Made by a program: the position numbers and the translations under genes. A DNA stretch of 64,000 nucleotides from positions 286,433 to 350,432 of the forward strand of contig MEUZ01000003.1 in assembly GCA_001772615.1 (NCBI GenBank), read 5' to 3'. Under the pieces are notes generated by a model. That model was given only the letters and a program-made list of their open reading frames with translations, was not told the origin of the DNA and did no database searches. Source of the stretch: a candidate division WWE3 bacterium RIFCSPHIGHO2_01_FULL_40_23 (GTDB lineage Bacteria > Patescibacteriota > WWE3 > UBA101185 > 2-01-FULL-41-18). This document shows, piece by piece, positions 3,001 to 62,022 of the stretch. Numbering within the stretch: the stretch's first letter is position 1; every line of letters starts with the position of its first letter.

Positions 3001-6000
3001 CTTCTTGGTGTAAAAGTATCCGAGTTGCTCCAGTCCCCTCCTACATTTATCTGGTTACTGACTCCGGATTTAGTGTCAAGTGTTCCCCCCGTTATGGTTA
3101 AATCGTCATCTACATCTAAAGGATCCTGAAGTTCAAGAGTTAAAGATCCACCCCCATCATTAATAGTAAGATCATTAAAGGAATCCCCACCGGATGTTAA
3201 CGTTTTGGTTCCGCTCGTCCCGTTAAAGTTAACCAAGCCCGAGTTATGGGTAAAGTTTGCAGAGTTGGTGAAGTTTCCTCCGATGTTTAAAGTTGTGGGA
3301 GAGACAAAAGTCCCACCGGAAACCGTAACGTTATCTGTTACTGTTCTGGAGGAAATAGCCATTGTAGTAAAACCTGCGGACAAAGCGTTCATTTCATTCT
3401 GGGTTAAGGCTCTGGTGTACACTCTTACTTCGTCTATTTGGCCGTCATAGTCATTTCCAGATTTATCCTCATCTATTCCTATCGAACTTCTCTGGCTGGC
3501 TGTGTTTGAAGTGGATGTTGCGGTAAAAGTTATCGTGCCCGTAGCGGATTGAGAGACACTGTTAAGATACATGGTAACGGTATCGTTGGTATAGTCTATA
3601 GTGCAAACAACGTGATACCAAAGACCGGTAATAAGATTGGTAGCAGAGGTAGTTTTGGTTTGAACTGCTTCAGTATCACCGGCGGAACCAAAGCACTGCA
3701 GTTCATCACCGCTTGTCGCAAATCCCGCGCGGGTATCGGCGGTGCTATCCCCTGTAGATAAGCCAAAGATCTGATCAACCCCGGAATTGGAGTCTTTTCT
3801 TATCCAGGCGGCCATGGTAAAGACACTAATATTTTGAGCGAGATTTAAGCTATCACCCATGTTGAGGTAATCTCCAGCTCCATCAAAGTCCATGGCAAAA
3901 GGGTTGGTGTCTTCTATGTCAGGGGCAGTTGCCGTAAAAACAGCGTTGGTCGGTGTAGCGGTATTATTGTTGGTAGATGAATCTTCCACTGTTCCACTCC
4001 CTTCATTCATTTTCCAGTACCCAACTTCGGAGCTAGTTAAAGTGTCCGACGTAGGTGCGTCAAGCGTGTCAGAGGCATCAGTGAATAACACAGTGAGATT
4101 TTTGTAGGGCCAATCCCTGATTGGGAATGATTCAGCCGATCCGTCTCCATCTCCTTTATATGTAACAGTGGTGCCTGTGTTGAGGGTAGGCGTTTCTATG
4201 GGATCTGAACCGACTAGTCTTAGAGTCCCCCCGTCTTCCACGGTAAAAGTTGAGCCGCAGTCAAAGGAATAGCCATTGGTGTCAAAAATGCCCTCAACAA
4301 CGGTGCAGGTCTGGCTACTGGTTCTAAAGCCGGAGATAAGAGATGCGGCGTTGGAGCCCGTTTTATTAATCCTTAGAACTGAGGAGAAAGTACCACCAGT
4401 CATGCTAAGTGTTTGAGCGGCCGATCCCGTGAGGTCAATGGTTAGGTTCGCCCCTCCAAAAGTCCCTCCTGTCTGCGAAAAATTGCCGGTGACTGTAAAG
4501 GAAACTGCGGACGCGGGGTTTAAAATAAGTGTGCCTATTACGGTTAAGTCACCCATGGCGCAACTATCGTTTAATGCAAGGTCATCCGATCCACCCTTGT
4601 TTATAGTCATAGAATCCCAGGTAACTGTGCCGCACGTTAAAGTGTCATCGCCGAGGGATGAATTTAAAGTTAAATCTATGCCGTCGGGAAGCACATTTCC
4701 GCTGTTATTAATGCTGTCAGTCACACTTAAGGTGGTAATACTGGGGAATGTACCCCCGTTAAGAGTCAGATTACCGGTGAGTGTAATGGTGGTGCCTGTC
4801 ATGATAAGTTCCGCACCAACGTTTGAGGTGTAGCTTCCGGTTGATGTCCAGTTCCCGGTGATGTTAATAGTGCCGTTGTTAGTTATGGCTCCTGAAGTTG
4901 AGGGATTGGTACCGGCTATGGGTATTATGCAACTACTAGTAAATGTAATACCATGCGTTGAAGCCTTACTCAAGGTTACGGAATTCCAGGTAACTGTTCC
5001 GCACGTTAAAGTGTCATCGCCGAGAGAATCAGTTAATGTCAAATCTATGCCGTTAGGGAGCAAATTTGTTGCGTTATAAAGGTCGCCGGCCACGCTTAAA
5101 GTGGTGATGCCTGCAGGGAAAGTGCCCCCGTTAAGAATTAAAGTCCCGGCGGTAATGGATGTACCTGTCACTGTCAGGAACGACCCAGCGTTTTGTGTGT
5201 AGGGTCCGCTGTGAGTCCAGTTACCAGTTATGTTAATGGTGCCGTTGTTTTTTAGAACCGCTGTTGTGGTTGGATTAGTGCCGGCTATGGGAAGTACGCA
5301 GCTGCTACCTATGTTCATGTCGTATTGTAAACCCTTGGATATAGTTACGGAATTCCAGGTAACTGTTCCGCAAGTCAAAGTATCATCACCGGAAGTATTG
5401 GTTAATGTTAAATCTATGCCATTGGGAAGCACATTGCCGGTGTTATTCAGGCTGTCACCTACGCTTAAAGTGGTGACACCTGCGGGGAAAGTACCTCCGT
5501 TAAGGGTGATTACTCCCCCCGTGAATGTAACAGAAGTACCTGTCATAATAAGGAACGCCCCTGTGTTTGATATATAACCCCCGTTGTGAGTCCAGTTACC
5601 AGTTATGTCAATAGTGCCGTTGTTTGTGATAGCTGCGGTGGTAGACGGATCTGTGCCTGCTATGGGGAATGTGCAGTTGCTTGAGATTGTGACAGAGTTT
5701 GAGGAGGAACCTTTACTGATATTTATGGCATTAAATGTGACTGAATTGCAGGAATAAACGGAGGTGGTAGTGCCATCAAAAGTTATTGTTCCACCGCCAG
5801 CGCTAAATACGGGGGAACCCGAGATGGTCAGGGAGGAGGAAATAGTCATTGTTTCGGAAGTGGCGGTAAAAGTTCCTGCAGATAGTGTGAAGGCTCCATT
5901 CAGGTCAATTGTTTGGGAGGTACTGTCAAAAGTACCGGCCGCCTGATCAAAGTTACTGGAACCGATTGCTAAACCCGTGTTTGCGGTAATGATACCCGTG

Positions 6001-6353
6001 TATCCGGAATTAATATCAATGCCTGCTACTGAACCCGCAAAGCCTGAATCAATGTTGGAGTTTTTGGTTGATGTTGAACTAAAAGTCGCGATGTCTGATG
6101 ACCCGGGTTGCGTATCATCTGACCAGTTAGCATCACATGACCACTTTTCCCCGTCTCCCACACCTCCCCCGCATGTACCATCTGTTCCCTCCCCATCCCA
6201 GGTTCTTACTACTGCGTAAGATTTCCCGGAATACAAAAGAAGTAAGAATATAAAAATACACAGAGCTGCAAAAAACCTTAAGCAGACGTTTACAAAATTA
6301 ATTTTTGCAAAAGCAAAAACACCGAAACTTAATCCGCGGTTAGAAAATTTCAT
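1..6353 (-). CDS. Giant secreted/surface repeat protein, partial: the C-terminus lies beyond the window start. It is interrupted by paired frameshifts near 5100 and 4978.
   Basis: The ATG at 6353-6351 opens MKFSNRGLSFGVFAFAKINFVNVCLRFFAALCIFIFLLLLYSGKSYAVVRTW..., a signal peptide/TM N-terminus. Manual translation downstream gives Gly/Thr/Asn-rich repeats (GTFTA, ITGNWTHNGG, LTLNGGTFPAG, DDTLTCGTVTW). A LamG_3 motif set spans ~3400-3900 (FAMDFDGAGDYLNMGDSLNLAQNISVFTMAAWIRKDSNSGVDQIFG ... GIDEDKSGNDYDGQIDEVRV). An FN3-like ITGLTTGSTYYFRIWAIDNFGNE sits at ~1980-2040 and a PT linker PTPTPTPIPSETVTPTVTPS at ~1020-1080. Frame 0 relative to 6353 was spot-checked open at 1020, 1980, 3420-3900 and 4440-4979. 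The ORF track lists no minus-strand ORF here. Confidence 0.75.
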   Translation of the reverse strand, partial: MKFSNRGLSFGVFAFAKINFVNVCLRFFAALCIFIFLLLLYSGKSYAVVRTWDGEGTDGTCGGGVGDGEKWSCDANWSDDTQPGSSDIATFSSTSTKNSNIDSGFAGSVAGIDINSGYTGIITANTGLAIGSSNFDQAAGTFDSTSQTIDLNGAFTLSAGTFTATSETMTISSSLTISGSPVFSAGGGTITFDGTTTSVYSCNSVTFNAINISKGSSSNSVTISSNCTFPIAGTDPSTTAAITNNGTIDITGNWTHNGGYISNTGAFLIMTGTSVTFTGGVITLNGGTFPAGVTTLSVGDSLNNTGNVLPNGIDLTLTNTSGDDTLTCGTVTWNSVTISKGLQYDMNIGSSCVLPIAGTNPTTTAVLKNNGTINITGNWTHSGPYTQNAGSFLTVTGTSITAGTLILNGGTFPAGITTLSVAGDLYNATNLLPNGIDLTLTDSLGDDTLTCGTVTWNSVTLSKASTHGITFTSSCIIPIAGTNPSTSGAITNNGTINITGNWTSTGSYTSNVGAELIMTGTTITLTGNLTLNGGTFPSITTLSVTDSINNSGNVLPDGIDLTLNSSLGDDTLTCGTVTWDSMTINKGGSDDLALNDSCAMGDLTVIGTLILNPASAVSFTVTGNFSQTGGTFGGANLTIDLTGSAAQTLSMTGGTFSSVLRINKTGSNAASLISGFRTSSQTCTVVEGIFDTNGYSFDCGSTFTVEDGGTLRLVGSDPIETPTLNTGTTVTYKGDGDGSAESFPIRDWPYKNLTVLFTDASDTLDAPTSDTLTSSEVGYWKMNEGSGTVEDSSTNNNTATPTNAVFTATAPDIEDTNPFAMDFDGAGDYLNMGDSLNLAQNISVFTMAAWIRKDSNSGVDQIFGLSTGDSTADTRAGFATSGDELQCFGSAGDTEAVQTKTTSATNLITGLWYHVVCTIDYTNDTVTMYLNSVSQSATGTITFTATSTSNTASQRSSIGIDEDKSGNDYDGQIDEVRVYTRALTQNEMNALSAGFTTMAISSRTVTDNVTVSGGTFVSPTTLNIGGNFTNSANFTHNSGLVNFNGTSGTKTLTSGGDSFNDLTINDGGGSLTLELQDPLDVDDDLTITGGTLDTKSGVSNQINVGGDWSNSDTFTPRSGSVVLDGGDQSISGTTIFTNLTKNITTPARTLTFPASVAQTITGTMNLSGTLGNLLSLRSSITDTQAQIDPQGTRTISYLDVKDNYNVNSTFIETSGFNITNSLNNTGWDFNAPSATAPTSISQATDGTGYITFSTTVSETDSQDTRLKVEYSDDAGTSWYDLDLVSATPSGGSVSLSDSDTYQVGQSNPIDTSTGSITLTVVWDTKSSSNGNGSLDDTNQTDIRVRVTPSDFSEDGSVATSSSFEVDNLDPSGLSGLTATSTSTTAPLTWAGATEANFNHYEIWYGTNQTDVEARSGTASEWDNSDDTDLTNVSATSTIITGLTTGSTYYFRIWAIDNFGNEAFAATISKLITGPATSDDTTDPESFDLILPDDKSYINDQRPTFKWEGAIDDDGLDSYTFSVDNGASGDFKIENIKPSGTKDKKTSSYVISYSGFNTSSDSDDKISLYTKSSGSWGSGNDGKLKEGKRRWTVKAIDDADNDRTESSTVFVDLTGPTVNLNRVDSSNASGSSFDITSQRPTFYGKITDPLNGDSEQNEVAVGPKEVKLTIEKKGALGTYSTFLISNINISDTFFSSDGSEVTDNTKNTSDKYSDFSYRVNEDMPYGDYRITLSGKDELDNEGESKTFNLTISEPPPVPTPTPTPTPIPSETVTPTVTPSETPPPSIIEPITPIIEDVVDAVTDLYWDTVDTVTTVVTTVADGLADAISLLPAELIEFAGNLLSPIQPVIDQLVENIVITAEVWFDRDPTIISDVKVIEVGTDYAVIYWKTNHHATSKVNYGLSYDYGSDVYSKEKTTEHKLKITGLKPGTIYYYEVMSQNKNYVFDARHEFETTTSGSELFALVPETKEELRKPTLIKRSVDSLKKIPLFGRAVTAIDDAFAKRWASALTLATSVTLLNLPSVYNFTQIYLTAISKIPIYNIPYALFGLLKKKRHPWGVVYDSVTKQPLDPAVITLKDTKTGQQVQGISDIYGRYEFIVEPGAYSISVAKSNYVFPSK
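4440..5760 (-). repeat. Tandem array of about 3.5 near-identical ~369-bp (~123-aa) coding repeats inside the giant gene
   Basis: The motif gtaactgt(t/g)ccgca(c/a)gt(t/c)aaag recurs at 4621, 4991 and 5359, with spacings of 370 and 368 bp. The translated units are nearly identical: ...PIAGT(D/N)P(S/T)T..ITNNGTI(D/N)ITGNWT...LNGGTFP...NGIDLTL...GDDTLTCGTVTW. Confidence 0.85.
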
Positions 6354-6402
6354 TTGTATTTAAATTTTACATGTGGACGACGGACATTTCCACCTCTATG
6401 AT

Positions 6403-6487
6403 GTCATTCTGGTGAAAGCCCAGAATCTAGGATTATAGATCCCGGGTCAAGCCCGGGATGACATGAAGTCAGTTCAGGATGACAAGC
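6403..6487. repeat. Array of 2-3 short hairpin repeats (GTCAT-stem-loop-ATC family) in the tsaB / giant-gene intergenic region
   Basis: Unit one is gtcatTCTGGtgaaagcCCAGAatc. Unit two is gATCCCGGGtcaagCCCGGGATgacat. A half-unit tcaggatgac follows. The same flank motif recurs at 20862-20952, 23323-23336 and 50696-50760. Confidence 0.7.
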
Positions 6488-51013: not shown

Positions 51014-51457
51014 CTATTTTAACAAACCAGCCTCTTTCTCCCTCTGACTTTCAAAATACCTTTTAACAATAATTTCTGCCGAAAGGCTGTCAAGAATATT
51101 TCTTCCCTTTCTTGAAGCACCAAAATCAACGGCTTTCTTTAAAGCCTCTTTAGTTGACATAAACTCATCAACGGTTTCAACCGGGACCCTTAACTTTGAC
51201 TTTAACCTTTTAACAAAAGTTCTTACTTTTAAGGTCTGCGGAGTGGATTTTCCATCAGGCAGAAGAGGCAGGCCAACAATTACCTTATTAATCTTATTAT
51301 CAATAACGGTTTTTAAAATACTACCTAAAATTTCCTCTCTATTTGTGGAAGAAATCCTTGTCAGAGGCATTGTAAGACCTGAGGACCCAAAAGCAAGGCC
51401 GACGTTTCTGTCACCTAAATCAACTCCAAGAACTTTTTCGCTTCCTTCGTTTCTCAT
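51014..51457 (-). CDS. ruvX: Putative pre-16S rRNA nuclease / Holliday-junction-resolvase-like YqgF
   Basis: LGVDLGDRNVGLAFG ... KVIVGLPLLPDGK ... VDEFMSTKEA. Confidence 0.8.
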   Translation of the reverse strand: MRNEGSEKVLGVDLGDRNVGLAFGSSGLTMPLTRISSTNREEILGSILKTVIDNKINKVIVGLPLLPDGKSTPQTLKVRTFVKRLKSKLRVPVETVDEFMSTKEALKKAVDFGASRKGRNILDSLSAEIIVKRYFESQREKEAGLLK

Positions 51458-52980
51458 TCTCTTTCAATCTCAATCTCAATATTTTTTTCATTTTCGGGAA
51501 GTTTATTCAAAAACGCTACGAATCTAGGTGAGAAATCCACATTAAGCGTCCCGACACCCTCTATTTTCCCTAAATAATCTTTCGCATAGGAGACATCTGC
51601 TCCTTTTAATTTTGCTCTAAGCTCCGATTCGTCAATTTTCGGAATTGTATAAGCTTTTATCTTAACCTGGAGGCTAACTTCGGAAACCTCCTTTGATGGA
51701 TCAATTGTATCCAAAACACCCACTTCGGTGTCATTGTCTCTTTTTGACACCTGAAAACCGGGTCGCACAAATTCCTTCAAAAGCTCCTCAAGAAGCGAGG
51801 AAAGTTCATCGCTTAAATAATAAAGCCCTCTTGCGGAAACCGTGAGCTTTAATGAGAGCTTGTCAGCCTCCTCACCTATATTTTTATCAAAAGCCTCGGA
51901 TAATCTTCTATACGTTACGGTTGATTCCAAAAGCTTTTGTTCTTTTGAAAGCTTTGAGCTTTTTAGATCCAAAAGCGCTGTCCCTTTCAAAGCCTCAAAA
52001 AGCGTATTTGAAAGTTTAACTTTATCCTCTTCCGACACCGCTTTCACTTTCTTTGATTTGCCTCCCGTAAACTCCTCTTCATTTGTTGCAATAAGATCAT
52101 CCGTGTCAAATCCCGAAATTTTAAAATTCTTGCCGTCTTCAAGGTTATACTTGGAACCAAAAACTTCGGCTTCAACTTTAAGTTTCTTTTTGCCATAAAC
52201 AGGGGCGGGAGCTGGCTCAAGCTCCGACGGAGCAGGTTCTTGTGTAAGTTTTGGCACTGTTACTTCCTCGTCAGCAACAAACTTAAGGGCTTCTTTGCTT
52301 GTTATTAAAGTAATAGAAGTCCCTTTCTTAATTTTCTTATCATCCGTTGTTTTATTCACAACCGTAACTTCTCCTTTGGCCTTTTCACCTACGGTCTTTT
52401 CCCCCGTTGTATCAATCTCCATTGAAGCAGAAGCTGTAGCTTCAACAGGTCTTCCGGGAATAAGTCTTCGCTTTGCATCAACTGACGAAACGAGTGTGGA
52501 AAGCATAACAGTTTCACTTTTAACAAGAGGCTGCGAATTAACTTTAAGCCTTATCTTTGCCTTCGGATACACTTTCAGAAAAAAGTAAGAGAGGGGCACT
52601 ATCACAAGGATAAAAATAAGCAAAATAAGAAACAGACTTTTTGAGAAGTGAAACTTAAAAGGAATCTTTAGGAAAGGTTTTTTTGATTCTTTAAAGGCGT
52701 CTCTGCTTTGAGATATAAACCCGGTATCCTCATCAATTTTAGCGGCTTCCATCGGATCCAAAAGCTCAATAAGATTTTTTCCAACCTCATCTTCCGTTTC
52801 AAACTCAACGCTCTTCCCCGACTTTTCAAGCTCTTTTCTTATTAGTTTTAAGTTTAGGGCATTTTCAAACAAAACCGAATTTTTAGGAACCTCAACAATA
52901 AGATTTGAGACACCAAGCTCCCTTATCTTTTTTAAAGTATCCATTACATCATCATTTATATCTATTGTTATTTTTTCCAT
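51454..52980 (-). CDS. Bitopic membrane protein of unknown function (508 aa), co-operonic with the ftsA/pilM-like gene
   Basis: ~110-aa cytoplasmic N-terminus, one TM (LFLILLIFILVIVPLSYFFL), and a ~380-aa extracytoplasmic Lys/Glu-rich domain. 9-nt gap to the upstream gene. Confidence 0.6.
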   Translation of the reverse strand: MEKITIDINDDVMDTLKKIRELGVSNLIVEVPKNSVLFENALNLKLIRKELEKSGKSVEFETEDEVGKNLIELLDPMEAAKIDEDTGFISQSRDAFKESKKPFLKIPFKFHFSKSLFLILLIFILVIVPLSYFFLKVYPKAKIRLKVNSQPLVKSETVMLSTLVSSVDAKRRLIPGRPVEATASASMEIDTTGEKTVGEKAKGEVTVVNKTTDDKKIKKGTSITLITSKEALKFVADEEVTVPKLTQEPAPSELEPAPAPVYGKKKLKVEAEVFGSKYNLEDGKNFKISGFDTDDLIATNEEEFTGGKSKKVKAVSEEDKVKLSNTLFEALKGTALLDLKSSKLSKEQKLLESTVTYRRLSEAFDKNIGEEADKLSLKLTVSARGLYYLSDELSSLLEELLKEFVRPGFQVSKRDNDTEVGVLDTIDPSKEVSEVSLQVKIKAYTIPKIDESELRAKLKGADVSYAKDYLGKIEGVGTLNVDFSPRFVAFLNKLPENEKNIEIEIERE

Positions 52981-52988
52981 ATTTTTTA

Positions 52989-54206
52989 CTAAACTTTATC
53001 CTTAAGCTCAAGATAAACTTCGGATAGCGCGGCGGGCATCACATCATCATGCCCCACGGTCTTTCCCGTAAGATCGGAAATGTAAGAAAGATCCGAGACC
53101 GAAACCCTCTCAAAAACGGGAGGCTCCTTAAAAGGTATGTTTCTTGTCCACGGCTCTTTTTCAAGAAGAGTCAAAACATCACCCAGTGAACTTCCCCCGC
53201 CTATTAGGTATATTTTAGAGGGGAAGGTCTTAACTCCGTCAAAATCCGAAAATAAAAGCTCAACTCCCGAAATCCAGATCTCTAAAACATTTCTTAAGCA
53301 TGCTTCCACGTTTTCCATCTCTTCCGGGGAGAGAGTACCTAATGAATATCTTAACTTTTTTTCTTCAGCATCCGTAAAAGGAAGTCCGAAAGTTTCACTT
53401 ATTGCTCTTGTTAAGTGCCTCCCGCCAAGAGAAAGAGTTCTTGTTGCAATAAGCCCGCCGCCGAAAACAATCCCCACATCCGTGGTTTCCCCGCCAATGT
53501 CCATTAAAATCATATTCGGATCTTTTGAAGAGTTGGTTAGGGATTTACTTAAAGCGTACATTTCAGAGCTGACTGCGAGAATCTTCAATTTAAGCTTCTT
53601 TGCAAGCTTATCCAAAATTTCAATATGAAATGATGGGGAAAACGCGGTAAACAGGGCTATTTCTATCCTTTCGCCTGTCATTCCGATCGGGTTTCCTATA
53701 AAAGTTCCGTCAATTTTAACCGAAGAGATGGACGAATTGGTAAGATCCAATTCCAGATCAGGATTGCCTGTCATCATTGCAACCTCTTTTGAGGCCTCAA
53801 GAAAAGCCGTATCCTGAATTTTGGCAACAACTTTTGAAAGCTCCCCTTCCGAAATGGGATCATTTGGATTAGTCCTTGTAAGGCGCACCGTGGTTACAAG
53901 GCCTTTTGTCATTTCCCCGGACAGGCCTATGACTACGTCTCTTGTTTTAGAATCCGCGGATGAAAGAGCCTCGGCAATTGCCACCTCCGATGCTTCTTTA
54001 ACGCCCTCATAATCAACAATAGCGCCGCCTCTCGTGTACAAATACCCAAGAGGCTGTTTCCCAATACCTTGAATAGACAGCTTTCTTACCGAGGGGAGAG
54101 CTGTATCAAAAACAAGGCATTTAACATAATCCGTACCAATATCCCAAGTCAAAAACTGCCTGGGTTTTGACGGTTTGCCAAAAAGAGAAGGTAGTTTAAA
54201 CATCAT
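52989..54206 (-). CDS. Actin-like ATPase of the FtsA/PilM family
   Basis: LTWDIGTDYVKCLVF (phosphate 1), MDIGGETTDVGIVFGGGLIATRTLSLGGRHLTRAI (phosphate 2 / adenosine), IYLIGGGSSLGDV. 405 aa. Confidence 0.7.
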   Translation of the reverse strand: MMFKLPSLFGKPSKPRQFLTWDIGTDYVKCLVFDTALPSVRKLSIQGIGKQPLGYLYTRGGAIVDYEGVKEASEVAIAEALSSADSKTRDVVIGLSGEMTKGLVTTVRLTRTNPNDPISEGELSKVVAKIQDTAFLEASKEVAMMTGNPDLELDLTNSSISSVKIDGTFIGNPIGMTGERIEIALFTAFSPSFHIEILDKLAKKLKLKILAVSSEMYALSKSLTNSSKDPNMILMDIGGETTDVGIVFGGGLIATRTLSLGGRHLTRAISETFGLPFTDAEEKKLRYSLGTLSPEEMENVEACLRNVLEIWISGVELLFSDFDGVKTFPSKIYLIGGGSSLGDVLTLLEKEPWTRNIPFKEPPVFERVSVSDLSYISDLTGKTVGHDDVMPAALSEVYLELKDKV

Positions 54207-54234: not shown

Positions 54235-56085
54235 CTATGAAAGGACGGCTTTTATCCTCCTTACGCCTTTTGAAGAAGCCTCCTCCTTTAAGATCTTAAA
54301 CCTCCCAAGCTCCCCGGTATTTTTAACATGAGGGCCGCCGCAGTATTCTTTTGAGTAGGCATCCTTTAAATCCTTCCCTATGCAATAAACCTTCACCGTT
54401 TCCCCGTACTTCTCGCCGAAAAAATGCAAAGCCCCGCTTTTTTCCGCCTCCTCTTTTGAAAGATCAACCGAAGAAACAGGGAGATCCTCGGAAATTTTAC
54501 CGTTTACAATTTCTTCAACTTTTTTAATTTCTTCTTCGGTCATCTTCCTATCAAATGAAAAATCAAATCTTAATCTTTCGGTTGTGATATTGCTTCCCAT
54601 TTGCCTTACCTCACTGCCTAAGGTGTCTCTTAAAGCCTGATGAAGAAGATGTGTCGCAGTGTGATATTTAATATGCATTTCGGAGGTCCCTTCAAGACCC
54701 CCTTTAAATTTCACTTCTGAAGCAAGTTTTGACTTCTCTTTATGCTTTTCAAAAGCTTTGTTAAAAGTTTCGGTGTCAACTTCCACATTCACTTCTTTTG
54801 CAACCTCAATAATCAGTTCCAAAGGAAAACCATAAGTTTCATAAATCATAAAAGCATCCTCTCCCGATAAAGTCCCTTTCATGGCAAGAAGATGCTCAAG
54901 TTTTTTAAGACCCTTTTCCAAAGCATCGCCAAATCTCTCCTCCTCTTTTAACAGTTCCGAAATTATTTGTTCTTTTTTTGTCAAAAGATGAGGATAGGGT
55001 TCTTTAAAAGTTTCAATTACGGCTCCCGCGAGATCCTTAGAAAAACCCTTTTTTATACCAAGTTTCTTGGCAAATCTTATAGCCCGTCTTACAAGCCTTC
55101 TTAAAAGGTAACCATGCTCTTTGTTTGAAGGCAAAACATCCTCCGCAGTTAAAAACACGGACGTTCTGATATGATCTGCGATAATTCTGAAACATTTATC
55201 AAAATCATCACTTTCTCCATAAGTTTTACCTGAAAGTTTCTCAACCCTCTCTACAACTTTTGAAAATACATCTGTTTCATAATCATCGTCCATTCCGTTT
55301 GCAACAAGAAGAACTCTTTCAAAGCCATAGCCCACATCAACACTATTTTTCTTAAGAGGTTTGTATGAACCGTCCTCCTGTTTTTCATACTGCATAAAAA
55401 CGTTATTGCAGATTTCAATAAACCTTCTGCAGTTACAGTTTACATGGCACAAATCTCCATACTTTGGGTCATGAGCTCTTCCCGTATCATAAAAGATTTC
55501 CGAATCGGGACCCGCGGGATCTCCTGCTTTAGCCCCGCTTCTTTCCCACCAGTTTTTATTTCTTGGATAAGAAAAAATTCTTAAATTTCCTTTACCGACA
55601 AGATGAATGTCCCCTTCCTCGGCCGTTATCCCATATTTTTTAAACTCCTTTTTCCAGATTTCTAGTGACTCTGTATCTTTTGGTATTTTTGCATCACCTT
55701 GAAAGACGCTGACATAAAGCTTTTCAACAGAAAGACCAATAATATTTACAAAAAATTCAAGAGACCAGCCTATCTGCTCTTTTTTAAAGTAATCTCCTAA
55801 AGACCAGTTTCCCATCATTTCAAAAAAAGTGTGATGGACGGGAGTTTCCCCAACTTCATCAAGATCTTCAGCCCTTATGCATTTTTGGATATTTACAAGT
55901 CTTTTTCCCTCTGGGTGAGGCTCACCTAAAAGATATGGGATTAAAGGCTGCATTCCGCTTCCCGTGAATAAAGTTGTCGGGTCGTTTTGAGGAACAAGAG
56001 GGGAGTTTTGTATCTCAACGTGTTTTCTAACGCTATCCGTATAAAACTCTATAAATTTCCTTCTTAAATCAAGGTGTGAAAGCAT
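54235..56085 (-). CDS. alaS: Alanine--tRNA ligase, short form lacking the C-Ala domain (616 aa)
   Basis: Class II motifs (FTGSGMQPL; VGETPVHHTFFEMMGNWSLGDYFK) and editing-domain HxxxH/CxxxH (HTATHLLHQAL ... CGGPH). Confidence 0.9.
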   Translation of the reverse strand: MLSHLDLRRKFIEFYTDSVRKHVEIQNSPLVPQNDPTTLFTGSGMQPLIPYLLGEPHPEGKRLVNIQKCIRAEDLDEVGETPVHHTFFEMMGNWSLGDYFKKEQIGWSLEFFVNIIGLSVEKLYVSVFQGDAKIPKDTESLEIWKKEFKKYGITAEEGDIHLVGKGNLRIFSYPRNKNWWERSGAKAGDPAGPDSEIFYDTGRAHDPKYGDLCHVNCNCRRFIEICNNVFMQYEKQEDGSYKPLKKNSVDVGYGFERVLLVANGMDDDYETDVFSKVVERVEKLSGKTYGESDDFDKCFRIIADHIRTSVFLTAEDVLPSNKEHGYLLRRLVRRAIRFAKKLGIKKGFSKDLAGAVIETFKEPYPHLLTKKEQIISELLKEEERFGDALEKGLKKLEHLLAMKGTLSGEDAFMIYETYGFPLELIIEVAKEVNVEVDTETFNKAFEKHKEKSKLASEVKFKGGLEGTSEMHIKYHTATHLLHQALRDTLGSEVRQMGSNITTERLRFDFSFDRKMTEEEIKKVEEIVNGKISEDLPVSSVDLSKEEAEKSGALHFFGEKYGETVKVYCIGKDLKDAYSKEYCGGPHVKNTGELGRFKILKEEASSKGVRRIKAVLS

Positions 56086-56123: not shown

Positions 56124-56438
56124 TCACTGTGGCGGAAGAACTGGCACGGGGGGTTCTGTGTCATTTACTATCTCATCAAACTGGCCGGCAATTTTATTAA
56201 ACTCCTGATCAAAGCCTTCCTTTGATTTTGACAGCTTGTCATAATATTTGGCTTTTACTAACGCCTCCCCATTAACTATAAGAAGTCTTATCACACTTAA
56301 CAAAAGCTTGTGAAGATTTTTCTCATCCGATCCGTCATAGGTTTCTATAAACTCCTTAAGATGCGCCACAACAGGATCTTCGGATTTAAGGTTATCTAAA
56401 AGATTTATATATTTTTCTTTTATTTCTTTATTTATCAT
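56124..56438 (-). CDS. Hypothetical protein (104 aa)
   Basis: ORF only. Confidence 0.4.
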   Translation of the reverse strand: MINKEIKEKYINLLDNLKSEDPVVAHLKEFIETYDGSDEKNLHKLLLSVIRLLIVNGEALVKAKYYDKLSKSKEGFDQEFNKIAGQFDEIVNDTEPPVPVLPPQ

Positions 56439-56444
56439 ATATTT

Positions 56445-58004
56445 TTAAATAATCGCTTCGGGCGGCGGCGTCTCCTCGGGTTTGGTGTTCCCGTTTCCGC
56501 CAGCCCCAGGTTGAGTTTCGGGTTGAGCTTCAAGTACCACTGTTGCGGTACCTTCTACTACCTGTTGGCCTGCTGGTTTTGCCTCTTCCGGCGCTTCAGG
56601 TGCTTTTTTGGTCTCTGCCCCTCCGCCTGCTTCTCCCACACTTTCCCCCTCGGGTTTTTCACCCGAAAGGCTTCTTCTTACACCTTCCGCAAACGCATCC
56701 ATTTGGGCCCTAAAGGATTCTTCAGCCCTAGCAACTCTTTCATCAGCCGCCTTTTGCGCATCCGCCAACTGTTTTGCCATTCTTTCTTCAAACTCTCGTC
56801 TTTCCTTAGCTTCCCGCGCAGAAGCCTCATCAGCCTTCTTTAGCGCCTCTGTAAGATTTAATTGAAGCGTCTGAATTGTCTTAAGAAGTTCTGCCTGGGA
56901 CTCTGTCAGATTTTTCACAGCACCCTCCGCCTTTTGAGCTCTTGTTTCGGCGGCTTTATTTGCCTCATCCTGCGCTACCTGCCTTGCTTGTTTTGTGGGA
57001 GCCTGTCCGGCATCTTCTTTCTCATTCTCCCGCTTCACTTTTTTCGCTCTAGCGCCAAATAGTGTTTCGGCGGCTGATAGATCTTCAACCGAGAGCCCAT
57101 AGGCATCTCTTAAAATTGAAAGCTCCGAGATTATTTGAGCGTCTGAAAGGCCTTGGCCCATAAGCTCTTCCGCAAAAGTCATCAGCTCTCTGGCTGCCGC
57201 TCCACGGGTGTTATAGTACTCCCTAAGCTCCTTCGCAGCCTGTTGGTGAAGTCCGGCCGCTTCATCCCTTGCTTTTTGAAGGTTTTCCGCGTATTCACCA
57301 TTGAGCCTTGCAAGAAGGTCCTCTCTATTCTTTTCAGAAACCCATCTTTCAAGCGGGTGTCCTTTGTTATTGTGCCCATCCCAATCCTGTTCAAGAGATC
57401 TTCCACCGTGCTGGCGCTTATACCCGGTTCTAAACTCATCCACCGTAAGCTCCCCTCTCATCCATTGATCGGTCAACCCAAATCTATTTCTAACAACCCC
57501 AGGCTCAAGCGCCGCGTCCACATCCGTTTCGGATGCAACTTTATAAAGATTCCTGGAGTCATCCCACTGCGGAACACCTTTAACCTGCTTCACCTGCGCA
57601 ACAATAACTGTTTGTTTCTCCGGGTCCCTGTTGCCATTATTAAGACGCACATAAACTACTACGTCATCCTCATATTCTTTTTCTCCCTTCATCTTCCCCC
57701 AAAAACCGGTTTTCTCCTTCAGCCTATAAAAAACTTGAGGTGCGGCACTAAAACTTTGCTCTTCTACAATCTGTCCTTTGCCAAGCTCTTTGGCATCCGC
57801 CAGGTTTTCTATTCCAAGAGTTTTAAAAGCTCCCATGGCAGCTTGTTTGGCAATTTCAATCCTTGTACTTGAATCGCCGCCTTTATAAACATCCATTATT
57901 TCATTATGCATTGGGGGAGTCTCAACTTTTTTTTCAAGTTTTGAAATTTCGGCCTCGTTGGCCGCAAGTTCCATTTCTGCCGGCAGGGGAGTTCTTTCAG
58001 ACAT
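56445..58004 (-). CDS. Hypothetical coiled-coil protein with a Pro/Glu/Ala/Gly-rich C-terminal tail (519 aa)
   Basis: The central region is Ala/Glu/Lys/Arg-rich coiled coil and the tail is low-complexity. The 3' third of the gene is locally GC-rich from amino-acid composition. Confidence 0.6.
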   Translation of the reverse strand: MSERTPLPAEMELAANEAEISKLEKKVETPPMHNEIMDVYKGGDSSTRIEIAKQAAMGAFKTLGIENLADAKELGKGQIVEEQSFSAAPQVFYRLKEKTGFWGKMKGEKEYEDDVVVYVRLNNGNRDPEKQTVIVAQVKQVKGVPQWDDSRNLYKVASETDVDAALEPGVVRNRFGLTDQWMRGELTVDEFRTGYKRQHGGRSLEQDWDGHNNKGHPLERWVSEKNREDLLARLNGEYAENLQKARDEAAGLHQQAAKELREYYNTRGAAARELMTFAEELMGQGLSDAQIISELSILRDAYGLSVEDLSAAETLFGARAKKVKRENEKEDAGQAPTKQARQVAQDEANKAAETRAQKAEGAVKNLTESQAELLKTIQTLQLNLTEALKKADEASAREAKERREFEERMAKQLADAQKAADERVARAEESFRAQMDAFAEGVRRSLSGEKPEGESVGEAGGGAETKKAPEAPEEAKPAGQQVVEGTATVVLEAQPETQPGAGGNGNTKPEETPPPEAII

Positions 58005-58006
58005 AT

Positions 58007-60394
58007 TTAAGTTTGCGTTCTTCTATTAATATCCTCTTCAACTATATGCTTCTCTACTCCGTACTTCAAGCGTGATTTCTCTCTTATTCTTTCGGATAAT
58101 GACTTTTTTTCAGGAGACTTGGCGAGAGTTTGAAGCTTACTTATCTCATCCCAATTAACTTTTAGAGAAAAAGGCGGTGAGGGGTGACCGTTAATAAGAA
58201 GCCTAATATACGAATTTCCTATTGGAAGGTTAATTAAATCGGTTTTATCAAAAACGGGAGTGAACTGATTTTCAAGATAAACGGCGTCATCAACACCAAC
58301 TCTAAAAGAATTAATCGTGCCCACATTTCCAAAAACGGCTGTTTTTATATCATCCGAAAGCTGGGCAACAAACTGATTTGCCATTATCATGCATAATTTA
58401 TACTTTCTTGCTTCGGATAAAATAGTTGCGATATCGGGAGTAGAAAAATTCTGAAATTCATCAATGTAAAGATAAAAATCAGGAAAATCAACTTTTCCCA
58501 AAGCATCCGCACGGCTTAAAGCCGCCCCAAGAAGCCTCGGAACCATTAAAAGACCCAAAAAGTTTGAATTTTCCTCCCCTATTTTCCCTTTTGAAAGATC
58601 AACAAGAAGAATTTTCTTGCTATCCATTACTTCCCTGAAATCAAAAGCCGATTTTGACTGACCGATTATATTTCTCATAATCCTTTCGGTGACAAATCTA
58701 TCAACTTTTGAAACAAAATAACCTGTTTTTTCGCTTTTATGAAACTCCGAGGTCCCTGCCATTTCATCAGTCCAGTACTTTTTAACAAGCGGGTCTTTGA
58801 TTAAAGGGATTTTTTCCTTGGCGTAATTTTTGTCAATTATCAGCCTTAAAACTTCTACCATCGTGTTCCCCGGCTCTTCCATTGCCGTAAGCATTACGTT
58901 TCTTAAAGCCCTTTCAAGCTGAGGGCCCATAATACCCTGATGATTGGGGTCATAAAGTTTATATAAGAGTGAAATAAAAGAGTTTACGATCAAATGCTTC
59001 TGGGTTTCGCTTTTTGCTTCAAGAATGTTTAGGCCAAGCGGGCGCTCTTCATCTCCCGCGTCAAAATAAATGACGTCCTCCAGCCTCTCCTCCGGTATCA
59101 AGGGGAGCATGTCCTCTATTGCGCTTCCGTGAGGGTCAATAAATCCAACTCCTTTTCCTTCTTTTATGTCCTGTATCGCCATAAATTTCATTAACTCCGA
59201 TTTTCCTGTTCCAGTCTGACCGATTATGTAAAAATGCCTTCTTCTATCCTCGGTTGTGATTTTTACTTTCTTTTCAACCCCTCTAAAAATGCTGTCGCCA
59301 AGATACAAGCCTTCCTCGGGAAGATTAGGAGGAGCTGATGCTCTTTTACTTCTTAACCAGTTGATCCTTGGAGTTTTAATTTCTTTGTTTGGAAAATGGA
59401 AAATCGTTGCAAGTTCAACGCTGTTTAAAGTACTTGTGTTTTTATAAAGATAAATATCAAAAAAGGGTATAAAAATAGTTTTTGAAGAAAAAAACCTATA
59501 AATAAAATCTTCAACAAATTTCTTTTTAAAAAGAGTCAGTTCTTTTTTAAATCTGTTGTATTTCACATCGGAAAACTGCTCAAAAGTTCCCGTTAAATTT
59601 CTTAGATTGGCCTCGGCTTTAAACTTATCATCCGAAACCGAAACATATCTTAAGACAACATCAAAACCCGGTTTTGAAAGCTTTTTCTCAACGCCTTCAA
59701 GAAAGCTCTGATCTATATTGATCGGCTTTTTTTCAGGATTTGCCTGATGAGCTTTAATGCCCCCCACAAATCTATTACCCGCCGAAACCCATGCTTCCGA
59801 AGCGGGGCGCACTGAAATTTGAAGCGCTAAAACTTCCTCGGAAGAAAGTTTGCTCATAGCCGATGTAATACTGCTTATTCCATCCGAAGGAAGATCCTCA
59901 AAAGTTCTTAAAGGATAAAAAGGAGGGGCAGCAAGCTTTAAGGATGCGACGGCCACTTTGCCTCCCCTATCCCAGATTTTAGGTGGTTTGACTATATCAA
60001 TTTCAGCCGAAGGGTAAGCCCCGTTTATCTGCTTTTCAACAAGTGTTGCTAAATGGTTTGGGCATGAAACATAAAAGCTTATATCGGATTCTTTCCCAAT
60101 AATTTCAAAAGTGATATGCTCCTGCTCTGAAAAAAGGCCCTGGAAGAATCCTTTTTTTAAGGAGTACAGGGAAGCAAACATTTGTTCAGCCACTTTTATT
60201 TCAATTTCATTTAGTTCGGGCACCCTCACAAGAAAAAAAGTTGTGTTTAAAGCGTTTTTCTTTTTCAGGCCCGATTTTATAAAACCCGTAATAAGGCGGA
60301 GTAAAAAATACAAAAAGAGAAGAAAAATAACAACATAAAGAGCAATAAAAGCGAGGTCTATTATAGATTGAGAGGAGAAAGAATCTATTCTCAT
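58007..60394 (-). CDS. Membrane-anchored P-loop ATPase of the FtsK-HerA superfamily (VirB4/VirD4-coupling-protein/DUF87-like)
   Basis: N-terminal TM (LAFIALYVVIFLLFLYFLLRLITGFI), Walker A HFYIIGQTGTGKSELMKF, Walker B FYLYIDEFQNF, C-terminal MIMANQFVAQL...GTINSFRVG. 795 aa. Confidence 0.65.
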   Translation of the reverse strand: MRIDSFSSQSIIDLAFIALYVVIFLLFLYFLLRLITGFIKSGLKKKNALNTTFFLVRVPELNEIEIKVAEQMFASLYSLKKGFFQGLFSEQEHITFEIIGKESDISFYVSCPNHLATLVEKQINGAYPSAEIDIVKPPKIWDRGGKVAVASLKLAAPPFYPLRTFEDLPSDGISSITSAMSKLSSEEVLALQISVRPASEAWVSAGNRFVGGIKAHQANPEKKPINIDQSFLEGVEKKLSKPGFDVVLRYVSVSDDKFKAEANLRNLTGTFEQFSDVKYNRFKKELTLFKKKFVEDFIYRFFSSKTIFIPFFDIYLYKNTSTLNSVELATIFHFPNKEIKTPRINWLRSKRASAPPNLPEEGLYLGDSIFRGVEKKVKITTEDRRRHFYIIGQTGTGKSELMKFMAIQDIKEGKGVGFIDPHGSAIEDMLPLIPEERLEDVIYFDAGDEERPLGLNILEAKSETQKHLIVNSFISLLYKLYDPNHQGIMGPQLERALRNVMLTAMEEPGNTMVEVLRLIIDKNYAKEKIPLIKDPLVKKYWTDEMAGTSEFHKSEKTGYFVSKVDRFVTERIMRNIIGQSKSAFDFREVMDSKKILLVDLSKGKIGEENSNFLGLLMVPRLLGAALSRADALGKVDFPDFYLYIDEFQNFSTPDIATILSEARKYKLCMIMANQFVAQLSDDIKTAVFGNVGTINSFRVGVDDAVYLENQFTPVFDKTDLINLPIGNSYIRLLINGHPSPPFSLKVNWDEISKLQTLAKSPEKKSLSERIREKSRLKYGVEKHIVEEDINRRTQT

Positions 60395-60439
60395 AAGGCA
60401 GATTTACTTTTTAATTATACAGGTAAAAGCGGGAAGGCT

Positions 60440-60790
60440 CTATGAAGATACAGAATGTATGTAAGCACCCTCCATTTCAGAGGCGTCCTTAAATAACCCA
60501 TCGGCCCCCAAAATTACAGGGTGTTGTTGGGAGGGTTCACCAGGGGAAACGGCGGCGCCCTTGGATTCACCTTCGGGTGCAGGAGGAGGAGACACTCCCA
60601 AAGGAGGCCTTTCACTGATAGCAGGAGGCACAGGCGGGGGAGCCGTTTCGGTTTCTTCGGCCAAGATCCCTTGGAGTGTTTCAAGATGTCCAACAGGAGC
60701 CTCAGATCCCGGCGCCGCTTCCGAGGGCTCTTTCAGAGGAGGCGTTGGTTCAGTAGTGGGTGAGAAGTTAGGAGTGTAGGCAGTAGCCAT
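60440..60790 (-). CDS. Pro/Glu/Ala-rich low-complexity protein (116 aa)
   Basis: TEPTPPLKEPSEAAPGSEAPVG...APPPVPPAISERPPLGVSPPPAPEGESKG. GC-rich from composition. Confidence 0.4.
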   Translation of the reverse strand: MATAYTPNFSPTTEPTPPLKEPSEAAPGSEAPVGHLETLQGILAEETETAPPPVPPAISERPPLGVSPPPAPEGESKGAAVSPGEPSQQHPVILGADGLFKDASEMEGAYIHSVSS

Positions 60791-60832: not shown

Positions 60833-61267
60833 TCAGTTATGGCTTCTTATACCTTTAAAAAATCTCTGCTTCCTTTCACCTTCGTCATCGCCATCCTGTT
60901 TTTCAGAAGGCTCCCCGGAAATCTCATCTTTAAGATCCGAAACATAGTCTTCAACCTGTTCTCTAACGGGCTCCGACACCTCTTCCACTTTTCTTAAAAT
61001 GGGTTCAATCTTTTCCTTAATCTCTGAAAGTTTCGGCTCGGCCTTCTCTCTGGCTTCAGAAACTTTCTCTGATATATCTCTTGCCAAATCCCCCATAGCT
61101 TCTTTTTTATCATCATATAAAGCTTTGAGCCTTGTTCTTGTTTTTTTACCTTCATCAGGAGCAAAAAGTAGCCCCAAAACACCTCCGATGATGGCTCCTA
61201 CAGCAACTCCGAACAAAAACCCCTCGGCTTCCCTTTTTTCACACATTTTAATCACCCTCCTTTCCAC
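60833..61267 (-). CDS. YtxH-like (DUF948) membrane protein
   Basis: GFLFGVAVGAIIGGVLGLLFAPDEGKKTRTRL, then a Glu/Lys-rich helical region. Confidence 0.65.
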   Translation of the reverse strand: MERRVIKMCEKREAEGFLFGVAVGAIIGGVLGLLFAPDEGKKTRTRLKALYDDKKEAMGDLARDISEKVSEAREKAEPKLSEIKEKIEPILRKVEEVSEPVREQVEDYVSDLKDEISGEPSEKQDGDDEGERKQRFFKGIRSHN

Positions 61268-61652
61268 CCTTTTTAAAATCTTTTATGGCGCCAAGCACTT
61301 TAAGGCTTGAAACAATACCAGTGGTCAAACTTGATATAGCAGTAATCGGTCCCGCAACTGAATCCGTAATATTCTCCGCATTATCTAAAACACGGTTCAT
61401 TTTCTTAATTGTTTCGCGAAATTCCTTAAGAACAGTAACAACATAAATCCCTACAACAATAAGGTTGATTGTAAGTAAAGTGAGAATAATAACAAGAACA
61501 ATCTGATAATCTATCACAGGCAGTACCTTTCTTTTGGGGATCAAAACGAGTATCACACAGGGCAAAGAGGTAGTCAAGAGAAAGGGGCCAAAGGCAGACA
61601 GGCCCCCAAAACCAAAGCTAAAGGAAGCGTCCGGGAAGCTTTTTAATTTCAC
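61248..61652 (-). CDS. DUF948-like membrane protein (start uncertain; the N-terminus may be shorter)
   Basis: TM (IVLVIILTLLTINLIVVGIYVVTVL), then a helical domain ...RVLDNAENITDSVAGPITAISSLTTGIVSSLK. Confidence 0.45.
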   Translation of the reverse strand: MKLKSFPDASFSFGFGGLSAFGPFLLTTSLPCVILVLIPKRKVLPVIDYQIVLVIILTLLTINLIVVGIYVVTVLKEFRETIKKMNRVLDNAENITDSVAGPITAISSLTTGIVSSLKVLGAIKDFKKGGKEGD

Positions 61653-62022
61653 TTTTTAACTCACTAAGCTTTCCCACAACTTCCTCCGGAGGAAAACCAG
61701 GTGTGGTATAAACCGCAACGGACCTACCTAACACCCTCCTTTCTGCTATCATCAACCTCCAAGGAAAAAGGATCAGCATCTTTTCATGGCGATCCGCACG
61801 TGTTGAACAAAACTCCAGACCGGCAAACCACTCATAAGAATCATCCGTTTCAATCCCACCCCGCGCTCCTATAAAACCGGGAACTTTCTCCGCCGCCATG
61901 GCAAGATCCGCTCCGACACTAATAAAACGCGACCTAAACATTTGGTTCAACTTCAAAACCCCCCAGGGAAAAAACGGGCCATTAAAACCTTGAAGTTGGG
62001 TTTTAACCCTCTTTCCGCTCAT
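61618..62022 (-). CDS. Hypothetical protein (134 aa)
   Basis: ORF only. Locally GC-richer. Confidence 0.3.
   Translation of the reverse strand: MSGKRVKTQLQGFNGPFFPWGVLKLNQMFRSRFISVGADLAMAAEKVPGFIGARGGIETDDSYEWFAGLEFCSTRADRHEKMLILFPWRLMIAERRVLGRSVAVYTTPGFPPEEVVGKLSELKSEIKKLPGRFL

Follow-up and report, generated by a model that had tools for sequence, protein, structure and literature searches.

What is a gene for a membrane-anchored translocation ATPase doing in the genome of a candidate division WWE3 bacterium, and do the genes around it form one machine with it? The question is raised by a 64,000-nucleotide stretch of WWE3 bacterium RIFCSPHIGHO2_01_FULL_40_23, a tiny-genome member of the Patescibacteria (assembly GCA_001772615.1, contig MEUZ01000003.1, positions 286,433 to 350,432 of the forward strand), which we call the window and number from its first nucleotide. 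Between alaS and a gene with a YtxH domain, four open reading frames (ORFs) on the minus strand encode proteins of 116, 795, 519 and 104 amino acids (aa), of which the 795-aa protein is the ATPase. An initial annotation, made from the sequence alone, had described these genes as an island and as a minimal translocation, pilus or competence-type module. Our ORF calls reproduced the number, strand, positions and sizes of the four genes as well as the genes on either side. Beyond that the picture changed: the locus is part of the ordinary core genome of this bacterium, neither an island nor a self-contained secretion module, and the ATPase appears to descend from the coupling proteins of type IV secretion systems (T4SSs).

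Predicted architecture of the ATPase

The AlphaFold2 (AF2) model of the 795-aa protein (58007..60394, minus strand, as are all features of the four genes) has a predicted local distance difference test (pLDDT) score of 88. It comprises a helix (residues 8-47), an alpha/beta region (residues 51-331), a linker, a RecA-like region (residues 363-745) and C-terminal helices. Within the first helix lies the single hydrophobic segment IDLAFIALYVVIFLLFLYFLLRLITGF (about residues 12-38; 60281..60361), followed by the Lys-rich stretch KSGLKKKN, a charge pattern that would place most of the protein in the cytoplasm according to the positive-inside rule. An N-terminal membrane anchor, which is a trait of type IV coupling proteins (T4CPs), is predicted to be present as one transmembrane (TM) helix. 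The alpha/beta region corresponds to the DUF8128 domain (PF26449, residues 51-331; 59402..60244) and is joined by a conserved linker, containing …FHFPNKEIKTPRINW…, to a P-loop nucleotide-binding domain (residues 363-745; 58160..59308), for which motifs, AF2 secondary structure and Foldseek give the evidence.

Translation bore out the single N-terminal TM helix and both nucleotide-binding motifs of the initial annotation, with Walker A reading GQTGTGKS (59198-59221) and Walker B reading YLYIDEFQNF (58445-58474). Among 62 aligned sequences, G392-S399 (save T396, ≥90% conserved) and D645-N649 are invariant. The catalytic motifs appear intact, and ATPase function appears not to have been lost in this lineage. 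Between the strands at residues 441-445 and 595-599, the AF2 model contains an all-alpha insertion (residues 463-591; 58622-59008), so that a second T4CP trait, such an insertion in the nucleotide-binding domain, is predicted to be present.

Searching the PDB with Foldseek and the full-length model returned TrwK/VirB4 of R388 on top, followed by HerA, TrwB, the VirB4 C-terminal domain and Cagbeta. The TM-score was 0.61-0.67 on TrwB (calculated on the target) and 0.68 on the VirB4 C-terminal domain (4ag6). When the N-domain was modelled alone (pLDDT 89.6), its top 14 PDB matches were all TrwK/VirB4, with E values of 3e-7 to 1e-4 and a TM-score of about 0.5, and no other fold came near them. From the models, DUF8128 is predicted to have a fold like that of the VirB4 N-terminal domain, a likeness that may stem from homology or from convergence.

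Sequence relationships of the ATPase

At the level of sequence families the signals were close to threshold. The C-terminal block that the initial annotation had called TraG-like was matched by Pfam TraG-D_C on residues 640-681, with 22.4 bits against a cut-off of 22.0, and DUF87 was marginally above its own Pfam cut-off, but TrwB_AAD_bind fell below it (18.8 versus 20.5) and T4SS-DNA_transf, which a few homologues carry, was not matched. Scans of Pfam and NCBIfam gave no match to CagE_TrbE_VirB or AAA_10, the VirB4 families. The NCBIfam models for TraD, VirD4-CD1115 and CedD matched below threshold, the TraD and VirD4 equivalogs far under their cut-offs, and the VirD4-like CD1115 family aligned with residues 373-692. 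The best sequence-family matches (TraD, VirD4-CD1115 and TrwB) are all of T4CP type, and a profile built from the 62 sequences and compared with the PDB found DotL and TrwB.

The family is large. Homologues of the ATPase number more than 4,356, and a profile of the N-domain retrieved 3,179 clusters at 50% identity, 1,719 of them at E ≤ 1e-10. In the proteins listed by this search, fragments excepted, DUF8128 starts within the first ~115 residues. Precomputed Pfam annotation assigns DUF8128 to the identical protein P0001 and to all 120 homologues among the matches listed, and DUF87/TraG-D_C across the family. A literature search found no paper on DUF8128, and the family is functionally uncharacterised, in keeping with the initial annotation, which had called such ATPases poorly characterised in small-genome lineages.

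Relatives on plasmids decided between a VirB4 and a coupling protein. A tblastn search found full-length homologues, N-domain included, on plasmids of Streptomyces/Embleya, Bacillus, Staphylococcus and haloarchaea. Three of these elements, from Embleya, B. subtilis and S. epidermidis, encode the homologue next to a relaxase of the 'replication-relaxation family', which is the position of the coupling protein; the same operon also encodes a cell-wall hydrolase, PrgI/TcpE (VirB3-like) and a VirB4-like ATPase distinct from the homologue. BLASTP aligned residues 48-747 of the window ATPase with the T4CP-position protein of the Embleya plasmid (E 2.5e-59, 25% identity) and matched that of the B. 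subtilis plasmid with E 3.6e-37, whereas the VirB4-like ATPases of the same elements (three plasmids) gave E values above 0.01. Because BLAST matches the coupling-position proteins, and not the VirB4-like ATPases, of the same plasmids, we assign the protein to the T4CP rather than the VirB4 lineage. It appears to belong to the T4CP (VirD4/TraG/TraD) lineage of the FtsK-HerA superfamily, as a monoderm/archaeal subtype with a DUF8128 N-domain. The earlier placement as a translocase of the VirD4/VirB4/HerA superfamily with a single-pass anchor is supported by both the family and the fold searches.

The fold matches suggest a different identity, a VirB4-type assembly ATPase that is in effect a VirB3-VirB4-like fusion. 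TrwK/VirB4 heads the PDB matches of the full-length model, the leading matches of the N-domain are VirB4 only, and the N-terminal TM helix could replace VirB3. Sequence comparison speaks otherwise, since the VirB4 families CagE_TrbE_VirB and AAA_10 are unmatched, the sequence matches (TraD, VirD4, TraG-D_C, TrwB) are all T4CP-type, and reciprocal BLAST picks the T4CP-position protein of the plasmids. Moreover, Patescibacteria possess a monophyletic VirB4 of their own, and fusions of VirB3 to VirB4 have not been reported from them (PMC12102498). We regard a VirB4 identity as very improbable.

Other identities were considered and rejected. No FtsK_SpoIIIE, FtsK_gamma or 4TM-anchor Pfam match was found on the ATPase, which argues against FtsK/SpoIIIE, and six genes upstream lies the gene for a true FtsK, which has FtsK_4TM, alpha, SpoIIIE and gamma domains; because this FtsK is complete, the ATPase is not the FtsK of the genome. 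HerA was rejected on a score of 14.2 bits for NF040819 (cut-off 970) and on the VirB4-like fold of the N-domain, with no HAS-barrel. For a defence ATPase of the MADS/HerA type, the PADLOC model mad8 matches the P-loop only (E 4e-13), and the three flanking proteins have no PADLOC match. An ABC or AAA housekeeping ATPase was rejected as well.

We also noted variant arrangements within the family. On the Haladaptatus salinisoli plasmid NZ_CP085328.1 (locus L091, 7851-11780) the protein is split: a 350-aa gene with DUF8128 only (E 1e-18 to residues 72-356) lies immediately 5' of a 930-aa gene with the ATPase only (E 6e-27 to residues 359-779). Homologues of full length are also known from large Bacillus phages (JN638751.1, phage G gp156; KC595512.2; FJ230960.1, SPO1 gp27.4), and phage G gp155, beside gp156, is another related ATPase. 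Locus L081 carries two DUF8128 ATPase paralogues of 819 and 858 aa in tandem (~1100-6469).

Genomic context and conservation

Relatives of the ATPase occur in at least 598 species (one genome per species; at least 600 pattern matches, 598 encoding a relative). The best 80 species matches belong to WWE3, many Microgenomates orders and Dojkabacteria/WS6; several titles of binchicken metagenome-assembled genomes (MAGs), such as 'Gammaproteobacteria' and 'Saccharibacteria', were taken as unreliable given the sequence relationships. In WWE3 the gene lies within a syntenic series that runs UDG, RNase J, FtsK, (BpsA_C), RodZ-like, small TM protein, YtxH, small protein, ATPase, …, FtsA/PilM-like, a protein of ~510 aa and RuvX. 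Against its counterparts in the related loci L003 and L005, the ATPase is the best-conserved protein of the block (73% and 69% identity), with AlaS at 70% and 66% and the FtsA-like protein at 55% and 58%. The corresponding values are 27% and 31% for the 104-aa protein and 26% and 27%, over a partial alignment only, for the 519-aa protein; the 116-aa protein has no significant full-length similarity to either counterpart.

Sequence comparison indicates that the ATPase is a vertically inherited chromosomal core gene in WWE3, Microgenomates and Dojkabacteria, and no foreign island. The term 'island' does not suit a gene that sits within a syntenic core block and encodes its most conserved protein. 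The companion claim that the locus is something other than housekeeping survives in part: the ATPase is not an FtsK, ABC or AAA housekeeping protein, but the block in which it sits is a housekeeping one.

We called and clustered ORFs in 86 related loci. Genes downstream of the ATPase are conserved among close relatives only. An XerC/D-type recombinase occurs in 38 of the 86 loci and a DivIC/FtsB-like protein in 34, mostly in Microgenomates and Dojkabacteria and just downstream of the ATPase (for example L058:8908-9774 and L045:11453-11815). The Xer gene is convergent with the ATPase in nearly all of its loci, and neither Xer nor DivIC shares an operon with it. Ribonucleotide reductase, SmpB and SpoIID are further recurrent housekeeping neighbours. 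Neither the window nor the related loci encode a relaxase, pilin, VirB3, VirB6 or VirB8. The idea of a minimal translocation, pilus or competence module had led to a search for relaxase, pilin and VirB6/VirB8-like genes nearby, and this search came back empty; the region is not self-contained.

In the window, the FtsA/PilM_2-like actin-fold gene (405 aa), the gene for a single-pass protein of ~508 aa and RuvX occupy 51454-54206 on the minus strand, a block kept in all WWE3 loci (including L002, L006, L008 and L009). The ~508-aa protein has a weak GlxA beta-barrel match. In L008 and L009 this block follows directly after the ATPase, and in the window lineage the 519-aa, 104-aa and alaS genes come between. 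Since the ATPase abuts the FtsA-like gene in other WWE3 loci, these three genes lie between two genes that are adjacent elsewhere.

These data also bear on whether the region could be what is left of a defence island, a prophage or an integrated conjugative element. Plasmids and phages do carry homologues (Bacillus phage G gp156; phrog_5156, E 1e-75), mad8 of PADLOC matches the P-loop domain (E 4e-13), and many Microgenomates loci have a tyrosine recombinase close by. In addition, the GC content of the 116-aa gene (0.55) and of the 519-aa gene (0.49) is raised over that of the window (0.40), with a modest rise at third codon positions (0.41-0.43 versus about 0.34). The GC shift is accounted for by amino-acid composition, because both proteins are rich in Pro, Ala, Gly and Glu. 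Position and synteny are kept across at least three classes of the candidate phyla radiation (CPR), selection is strongly purifying, and neither a relaxase or integrase nor repeats or further MADS components are present in the window. A mobile or defensive remnant is, in our judgement, scarcely credible.

The small protein encoded upstream of the ATPase

Directly upstream of the ATPase gene, the 116-aa protein (60440..60790) is rich in Pro, Glu and Ala, as had been reported, has an isoelectric point of 4.3 and no hydrophobic segment, and is fast-evolving and probably disordered. Its only conserved part is the C-terminus (…HPVILGADGLFKDASEMEGAYIHSV). A 115-aa ORF at the same position in L092, the nearest relative, is 36% identical (E 7e-6), and the ATPases of the two loci are 78% identical.

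Of the 86 loci, 68 have a small co-directional gene directly upstream of the ATPase gene. It encodes about 90-230 aa with many disorder-promoting residues and often overlaps the ATPase start or sits within a few bases of it. In Microgenomates and Dojkabacteria the encoded proteins are a true family, with the C-terminal pattern '…LP(L/I)T…(G)(L)…S.RWLAEWC.R.LK…', a basic and amphipathic helix rich in Trp; a C-terminus of the Microgenomates type reads ...RWLAEWCLRRLK. The profile of this family gave 40 matches among 5,436 ORFs, of which 37 are directly upstream of the ATPase and one is two genes upstream. The other two are in-frame N-terminal fusions to the ATPase (L014:7587-10328 and L035:233-2773), in which the disordered region and Trp-rich helix of the partner stand in place of the TM helix of the ATPase. 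The WWE3 relatives have a different C-terminal peptide, '…(I/V)VDK(R/T)…TH(R)V…AD..TK.AD.EEQEFIEGVE.VH', for which a representative C-terminus is ...EQEFIEGVEQVH. Tested with the Microgenomates profile, the 116-aa protein of the window gave E 0.94, and homology between the WWE3 and Microgenomates partners is unproven.

Taken across the loci, the conserved unit appears to be a small disordered protein with a C-terminal helix together with the ATPase. The four-gene unit first proposed is retained to this extent: the pair of small upstream protein and ATPase is broadly kept (68/86), but the 519- and 104-aa genes are found in one WWE3 sub-lineage only.

The 519-aa and 104-aa proteins

The 519-aa protein (56445..58004) is acidic and soluble, with a conserved, globular N-terminal region at about residues 20-330 and a disordered tail whose PEAG-rich composition had been noted correctly. 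Its middle is probably helical and coiled-coil-like, as suggested by a weak SMC-type match over residues 240-435 (E 0.083), and no PDB sequence match was found. The 104-aa protein (56124..56438), acidic and helical, matched no family and no PDB sequence; it is identical to 'hypothetical protein A2716_04820' of WWE3 bacterium RIFCSPHIGHO2_01_FULL_40_23. A word-indexed search of a 5.8-billion-protein database with both queries returned self-matches only, and homologues of 25-31% identity were detected only by comparing positional equivalents. The pair was found only in the window, in L003, L004 and L093 of a single species, in two copies in L005, and as an inverted pair in L006, the 104-type gene always being downstream of the 519-type gene. 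The duplicated module of L005 (10379-13065) encodes proteins of 393 and 106 aa and then of 200 and 101 aa. The same locus has an inserted gene, located between those for YtxH and the small upstream protein, whose 737-aa product looks secreted.

None of the 116-, 519- and 104-aa proteins has a Pfam, NCBIfam, PADLOC or PHROG match, and all three are acidic and soluble, without a hydrophobic or TM segment by hydropathy. All four ORFs nonetheless appear to be real genes, judged from their homologues: more than 4,356 for the ATPase, the 115-aa counterpart for the 116-aa protein, and four related lineages for the 519- and 104-aa proteins.

One could take the four genes as a single dedicated translocation, pilus or competence machine. 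They are co-directional, with gaps of 45, 2 and 6 bp from the 116-aa gene through the 795- and 519-aa genes to the 104-aa gene (a further 38 bp separate the last from alaS); terminator-like sites on the minus strand are absent from the gaps that separate them; and the 519- and 104-aa genes stay paired next to the ATPase in four lineages. The phyletic pattern largely refutes this view. None of the other WWE3, Microgenomates and Dojkabacteria loci surveyed has the 519/104 genes, and the ATPase abuts the FtsA-like gene in several WWE3 relatives. In L006 the two genes are inverted, and L005 has them duplicated away from the ATPase. The flanking proteins, by hydropathy all soluble, include no channel or pilin, and they are 26-31% identical where the ATPase is 69-73% identical. 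A four-gene machine is very improbable. The 519/104 pair appears instead, from its distribution and divergence, to be a fast-evolving, lineage-specific accessory insertion in one WWE3 sub-lineage and no part of a core machine. Speculatively, the pair resembles a cassette of the cargo/chaperone or effector/immunity type, in that a larger acidic protein with a variable tail is followed by a small helical acidic one and both are duplicated and evolve fast.

A possible role for the ATPase and its partner

We propose that the ATPase is a membrane-anchored, probably hexameric translocase of the T4CP lineage which, with its small disordered partner, feeds substrate towards a T4SS channel; the chances of this seem to us evenly balanced. 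By analogy with T4CPs of the TrwB/VirD4 type, the ATPase would form a ring on the cytoplasmic face of the membrane, and its all-alpha and N-terminal domains would recruit a partner or substrate. The small upstream protein (116 aa here) may dock through its conserved C-terminal helix, either as adaptor or as cargo. ATP hydrolysis would then drive the substrate, more likely protein than relaxase-bound DNA, to a membrane channel. That channel would most plausibly be the Patescibacteria-type T4SS (VirB4/VirB3/VirB6/pilins), a monoderm-type system encoded elsewhere in most such genomes, and the most economical reading is that the ATPase may serve as the remote coupling ATPase of a distant T4SS. The 519- and 104-aa proteins would be a lineage-specific add-on, perhaps a cargo and chaperone-like pair.

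Published surveys speak for such an arrangement. Among 3,035 Patescibacteria genomes, 2,417 have VirB4 and 2,918 have T4CP homologues; only 148 of 5,713 T4CP homologues lie near virB4, and hardly any relaxases are found (PMC12102498). In the model Saccharibacterium, no recognisable coupling protein is encoded in the T4SS cluster (PMC10633639).

Several points weigh against the proposed coupling role. The oligomeric state, membrane topology, partner binding and substrate of the ATPase are themselves inferred. No T4SS component is linked to the ATPase in any CPR locus examined, and the genetic coupling that is a T4CP trait was absent, with no relaxase or VirB gene in the window or across the 86 related loci. 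The recurrent neighbours are cell-division and chromosome genes (FtsK, RodZ-like and FtsA-like in WWE3; XerC/D and DivIC elsewhere). When seven ATPase-bearing genomes, draft MAGs, were looked up in Table S1 of PMC12102498, five had VirB4 and two did not, a co-occurrence that does not discriminate because 5/7 is close to the 80% baseline. The same table scores many Levybacteria as VirB4-negative. In Southlakia epibionticum a T4CP homologue, which may or may not be orthologous to the DUF8128 ATPase, is reported to be non-essential although the T4SS genes are essential (PMC12102498). Finally, the 116-aa protein matched the profile of the WWE3 C-terminal motif weakly (E 0.01, among four test sequences), albeit at the equivalent C-terminal position.

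Many of the same observations fit an exapted housekeeping translocase, in which the T4CP-derived ATPase and its partner act independently of a T4SS, for instance on chromosomal DNA or envelope proteins in division or segregation. Such a role would suit a vertical core gene that is conserved at the level of AlaS, lies among FtsK, RodZ-like and FtsA/PilM-like genes in WWE3 and near XerC/D (38/86) and DivIC (34/86) genes elsewhere, and is unlinked to VirB genes in the loci examined. The two draft genomes without detectable VirB4 point the same way, as does the report that the T4CP homologue of Southlakia is non-essential, and the authors of that study likewise allow for exaptation (PMC12102498). 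Yet the neighbour associations vary by clade, the Xer and DivIC genes are mostly convergent and non-operonic, a canonical FtsK is already encoded, no DNA-binding (gamma-like) domain was detected on the ATPase, and VirB4 is present in five of the seven genomes checked. We consider exaptation a rather unlikely, though serious, contender. A bolder version of it, which we hold equally tentatively, is an early domestication of a conjugative coupling protein in the Microgenomates/WWE3/Dojkabacteria radiation. Together with a small disordered partner that evolved alongside it, either separate or fused in replacement of the TM helix, this protein may have become an autonomous, T4SS-independent and near-essential membrane machine, perhaps for chromosome or envelope handling at division or for host-cell exchange, with the 519/104 pair as a recruited cassette of the cargo/chaperone type.

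The interest of the proposed remote coupling ATPase lies in the biology of its hosts. Patescibacteria are host-dependent, and in one genetically tractable member the T4SS is essential, its cluster has no coupling protein and its substrates are unidentified (PMC10633639, PMC12102498). An ATPase with DUF8128 that is conserved like an aminoacyl-tRNA synthetase and has a small partner is a candidate for the missing substrate-recruitment step; alternatively, if exaptation is true, it would be a conjugation motor turned housekeeping gene. The gene pair and its natural fusions offer handles for the study of the partner interaction. Orphan T4CP homologues of Patescibacteria were already catalogued in 2025 (PMC12102498), and the window ATPase adds a member. 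In the T4SS and Saccharibacteria genetics literature examined we did not find the VirB4-like fold of DUF8128, the orthology to relaxase-adjacent T4CPs of Gram-positive plasmids with its split haloarchaeal version, or the near-universal small disordered partner and its fusions. For the window itself, the result mostly clarifies the nature of the locus.

Other features of the window

The four genes are followed downstream by alaS (54235..56085, minus strand) and preceded by the YtxH-domain gene (60833..61267, minus strand; Pfam YtxH E 5e-18). Bacterial AlaS is typically about 870 aa long. The AlaS of the window has only 616 aa (tRNA-synt_2c and tRNA_SAD), and those of L003 and L005 are likewise short at 621-622 aa. 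Rfam and tRNA scans of the whole window gave no matches. Promoter and terminator matches were no more frequent than in shuffled sequence, so that operon boundaries are not established.

Upstream of the YtxH gene, the ORF at 61248-61652 probably has a true length of about 88 aa, because its homologues align from residue 47. A 134-aa ORF at 61618-62022 (minus strand, GC 0.47), with no homologue in the related loci and no Pfam match, may be lineage-specific or spurious. At the far end of the window, where the ORF list suggests a gene-free stretch of 6 kb, positions 1-6353 of the minus strand hold one giant ORF, which is over 2,119 aa long and continues beyond the window start. It encodes an N-terminal hydrophobic segment and Thr/Ser/Gly-rich repeats and is therefore probably a surface protein. 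The GC skew of this stretch is opposite to that of the remainder of the window.

Comparison with known systems

Set beside known systems, the ATPase shares with FtsK and HerA membership of the ASCE P-loop superfamily, a Foldseek match to HerA and a marginal DUF87 match, but lacks an FtsK_SpoIIIE, FtsK_gamma or HAS-barrel signal. The phage family phrog_5156 (phage G gp156, SPO1-like) resembles it over the full length in sequence (E 1e-75) and in fold (Foldseek E 5.6e-45, TM-score up to 0.67); its members are phage-encoded and have no assigned function. TrwK/VirB4 of R388 has the same two domains, with a specific fold match in the N-domain (E 3e-7, TM-score about 0.5) and the same C-terminal ATPase fold (4ag6), whereas the window ATPase has no VirB4 sequence signal and no VirB3 partner.

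With TrwB of R388, VirD4 and TraD, the canonical T4CPs, it shares the N-terminal anchor and the P-loop domain with its all-alpha insertion; the TM-score on TrwB is 0.61-0.67. It differs from them in its VirB4-like DUF8128 N-domain, in scoring far under the equivalog cut-offs and in having no link to a relaxase. TrwB-type T4CPs typically have two TM helices, whereas the window ATPase has one. The window ATPase very probably belongs to the set of orphan T4CP homologues that Quinonero-Coronel et al. (2025, PMC12102498) found in Patescibacteria with a VirD4 profile, mostly far from virB4 and without a relaxase; the DUF8128/VirB4-like N-domain, the small disordered partner and the gene fusions are not described there.

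A close likeness is to the T4CP-position ATPases of monoderm conjugative plasmids, namely WP_331738717.1 of Embleya sp. NBC_00896, WP_121549396.1 ('DUF87 domain-containing protein') of B. subtilis MH-1 and WP_154736108.1 of S. epidermidis p14-01514. Those proteins are encoded in conjugation operons, in contrast to the window ATPase, which is chromosomal and core, has a small disordered partner and lacks relaxase, PrgI, VirB4 and hydrolase neighbours. Over their full length, however, they share with it the N-domain and the nucleotide-binding domain with its alpha-helical insertion.

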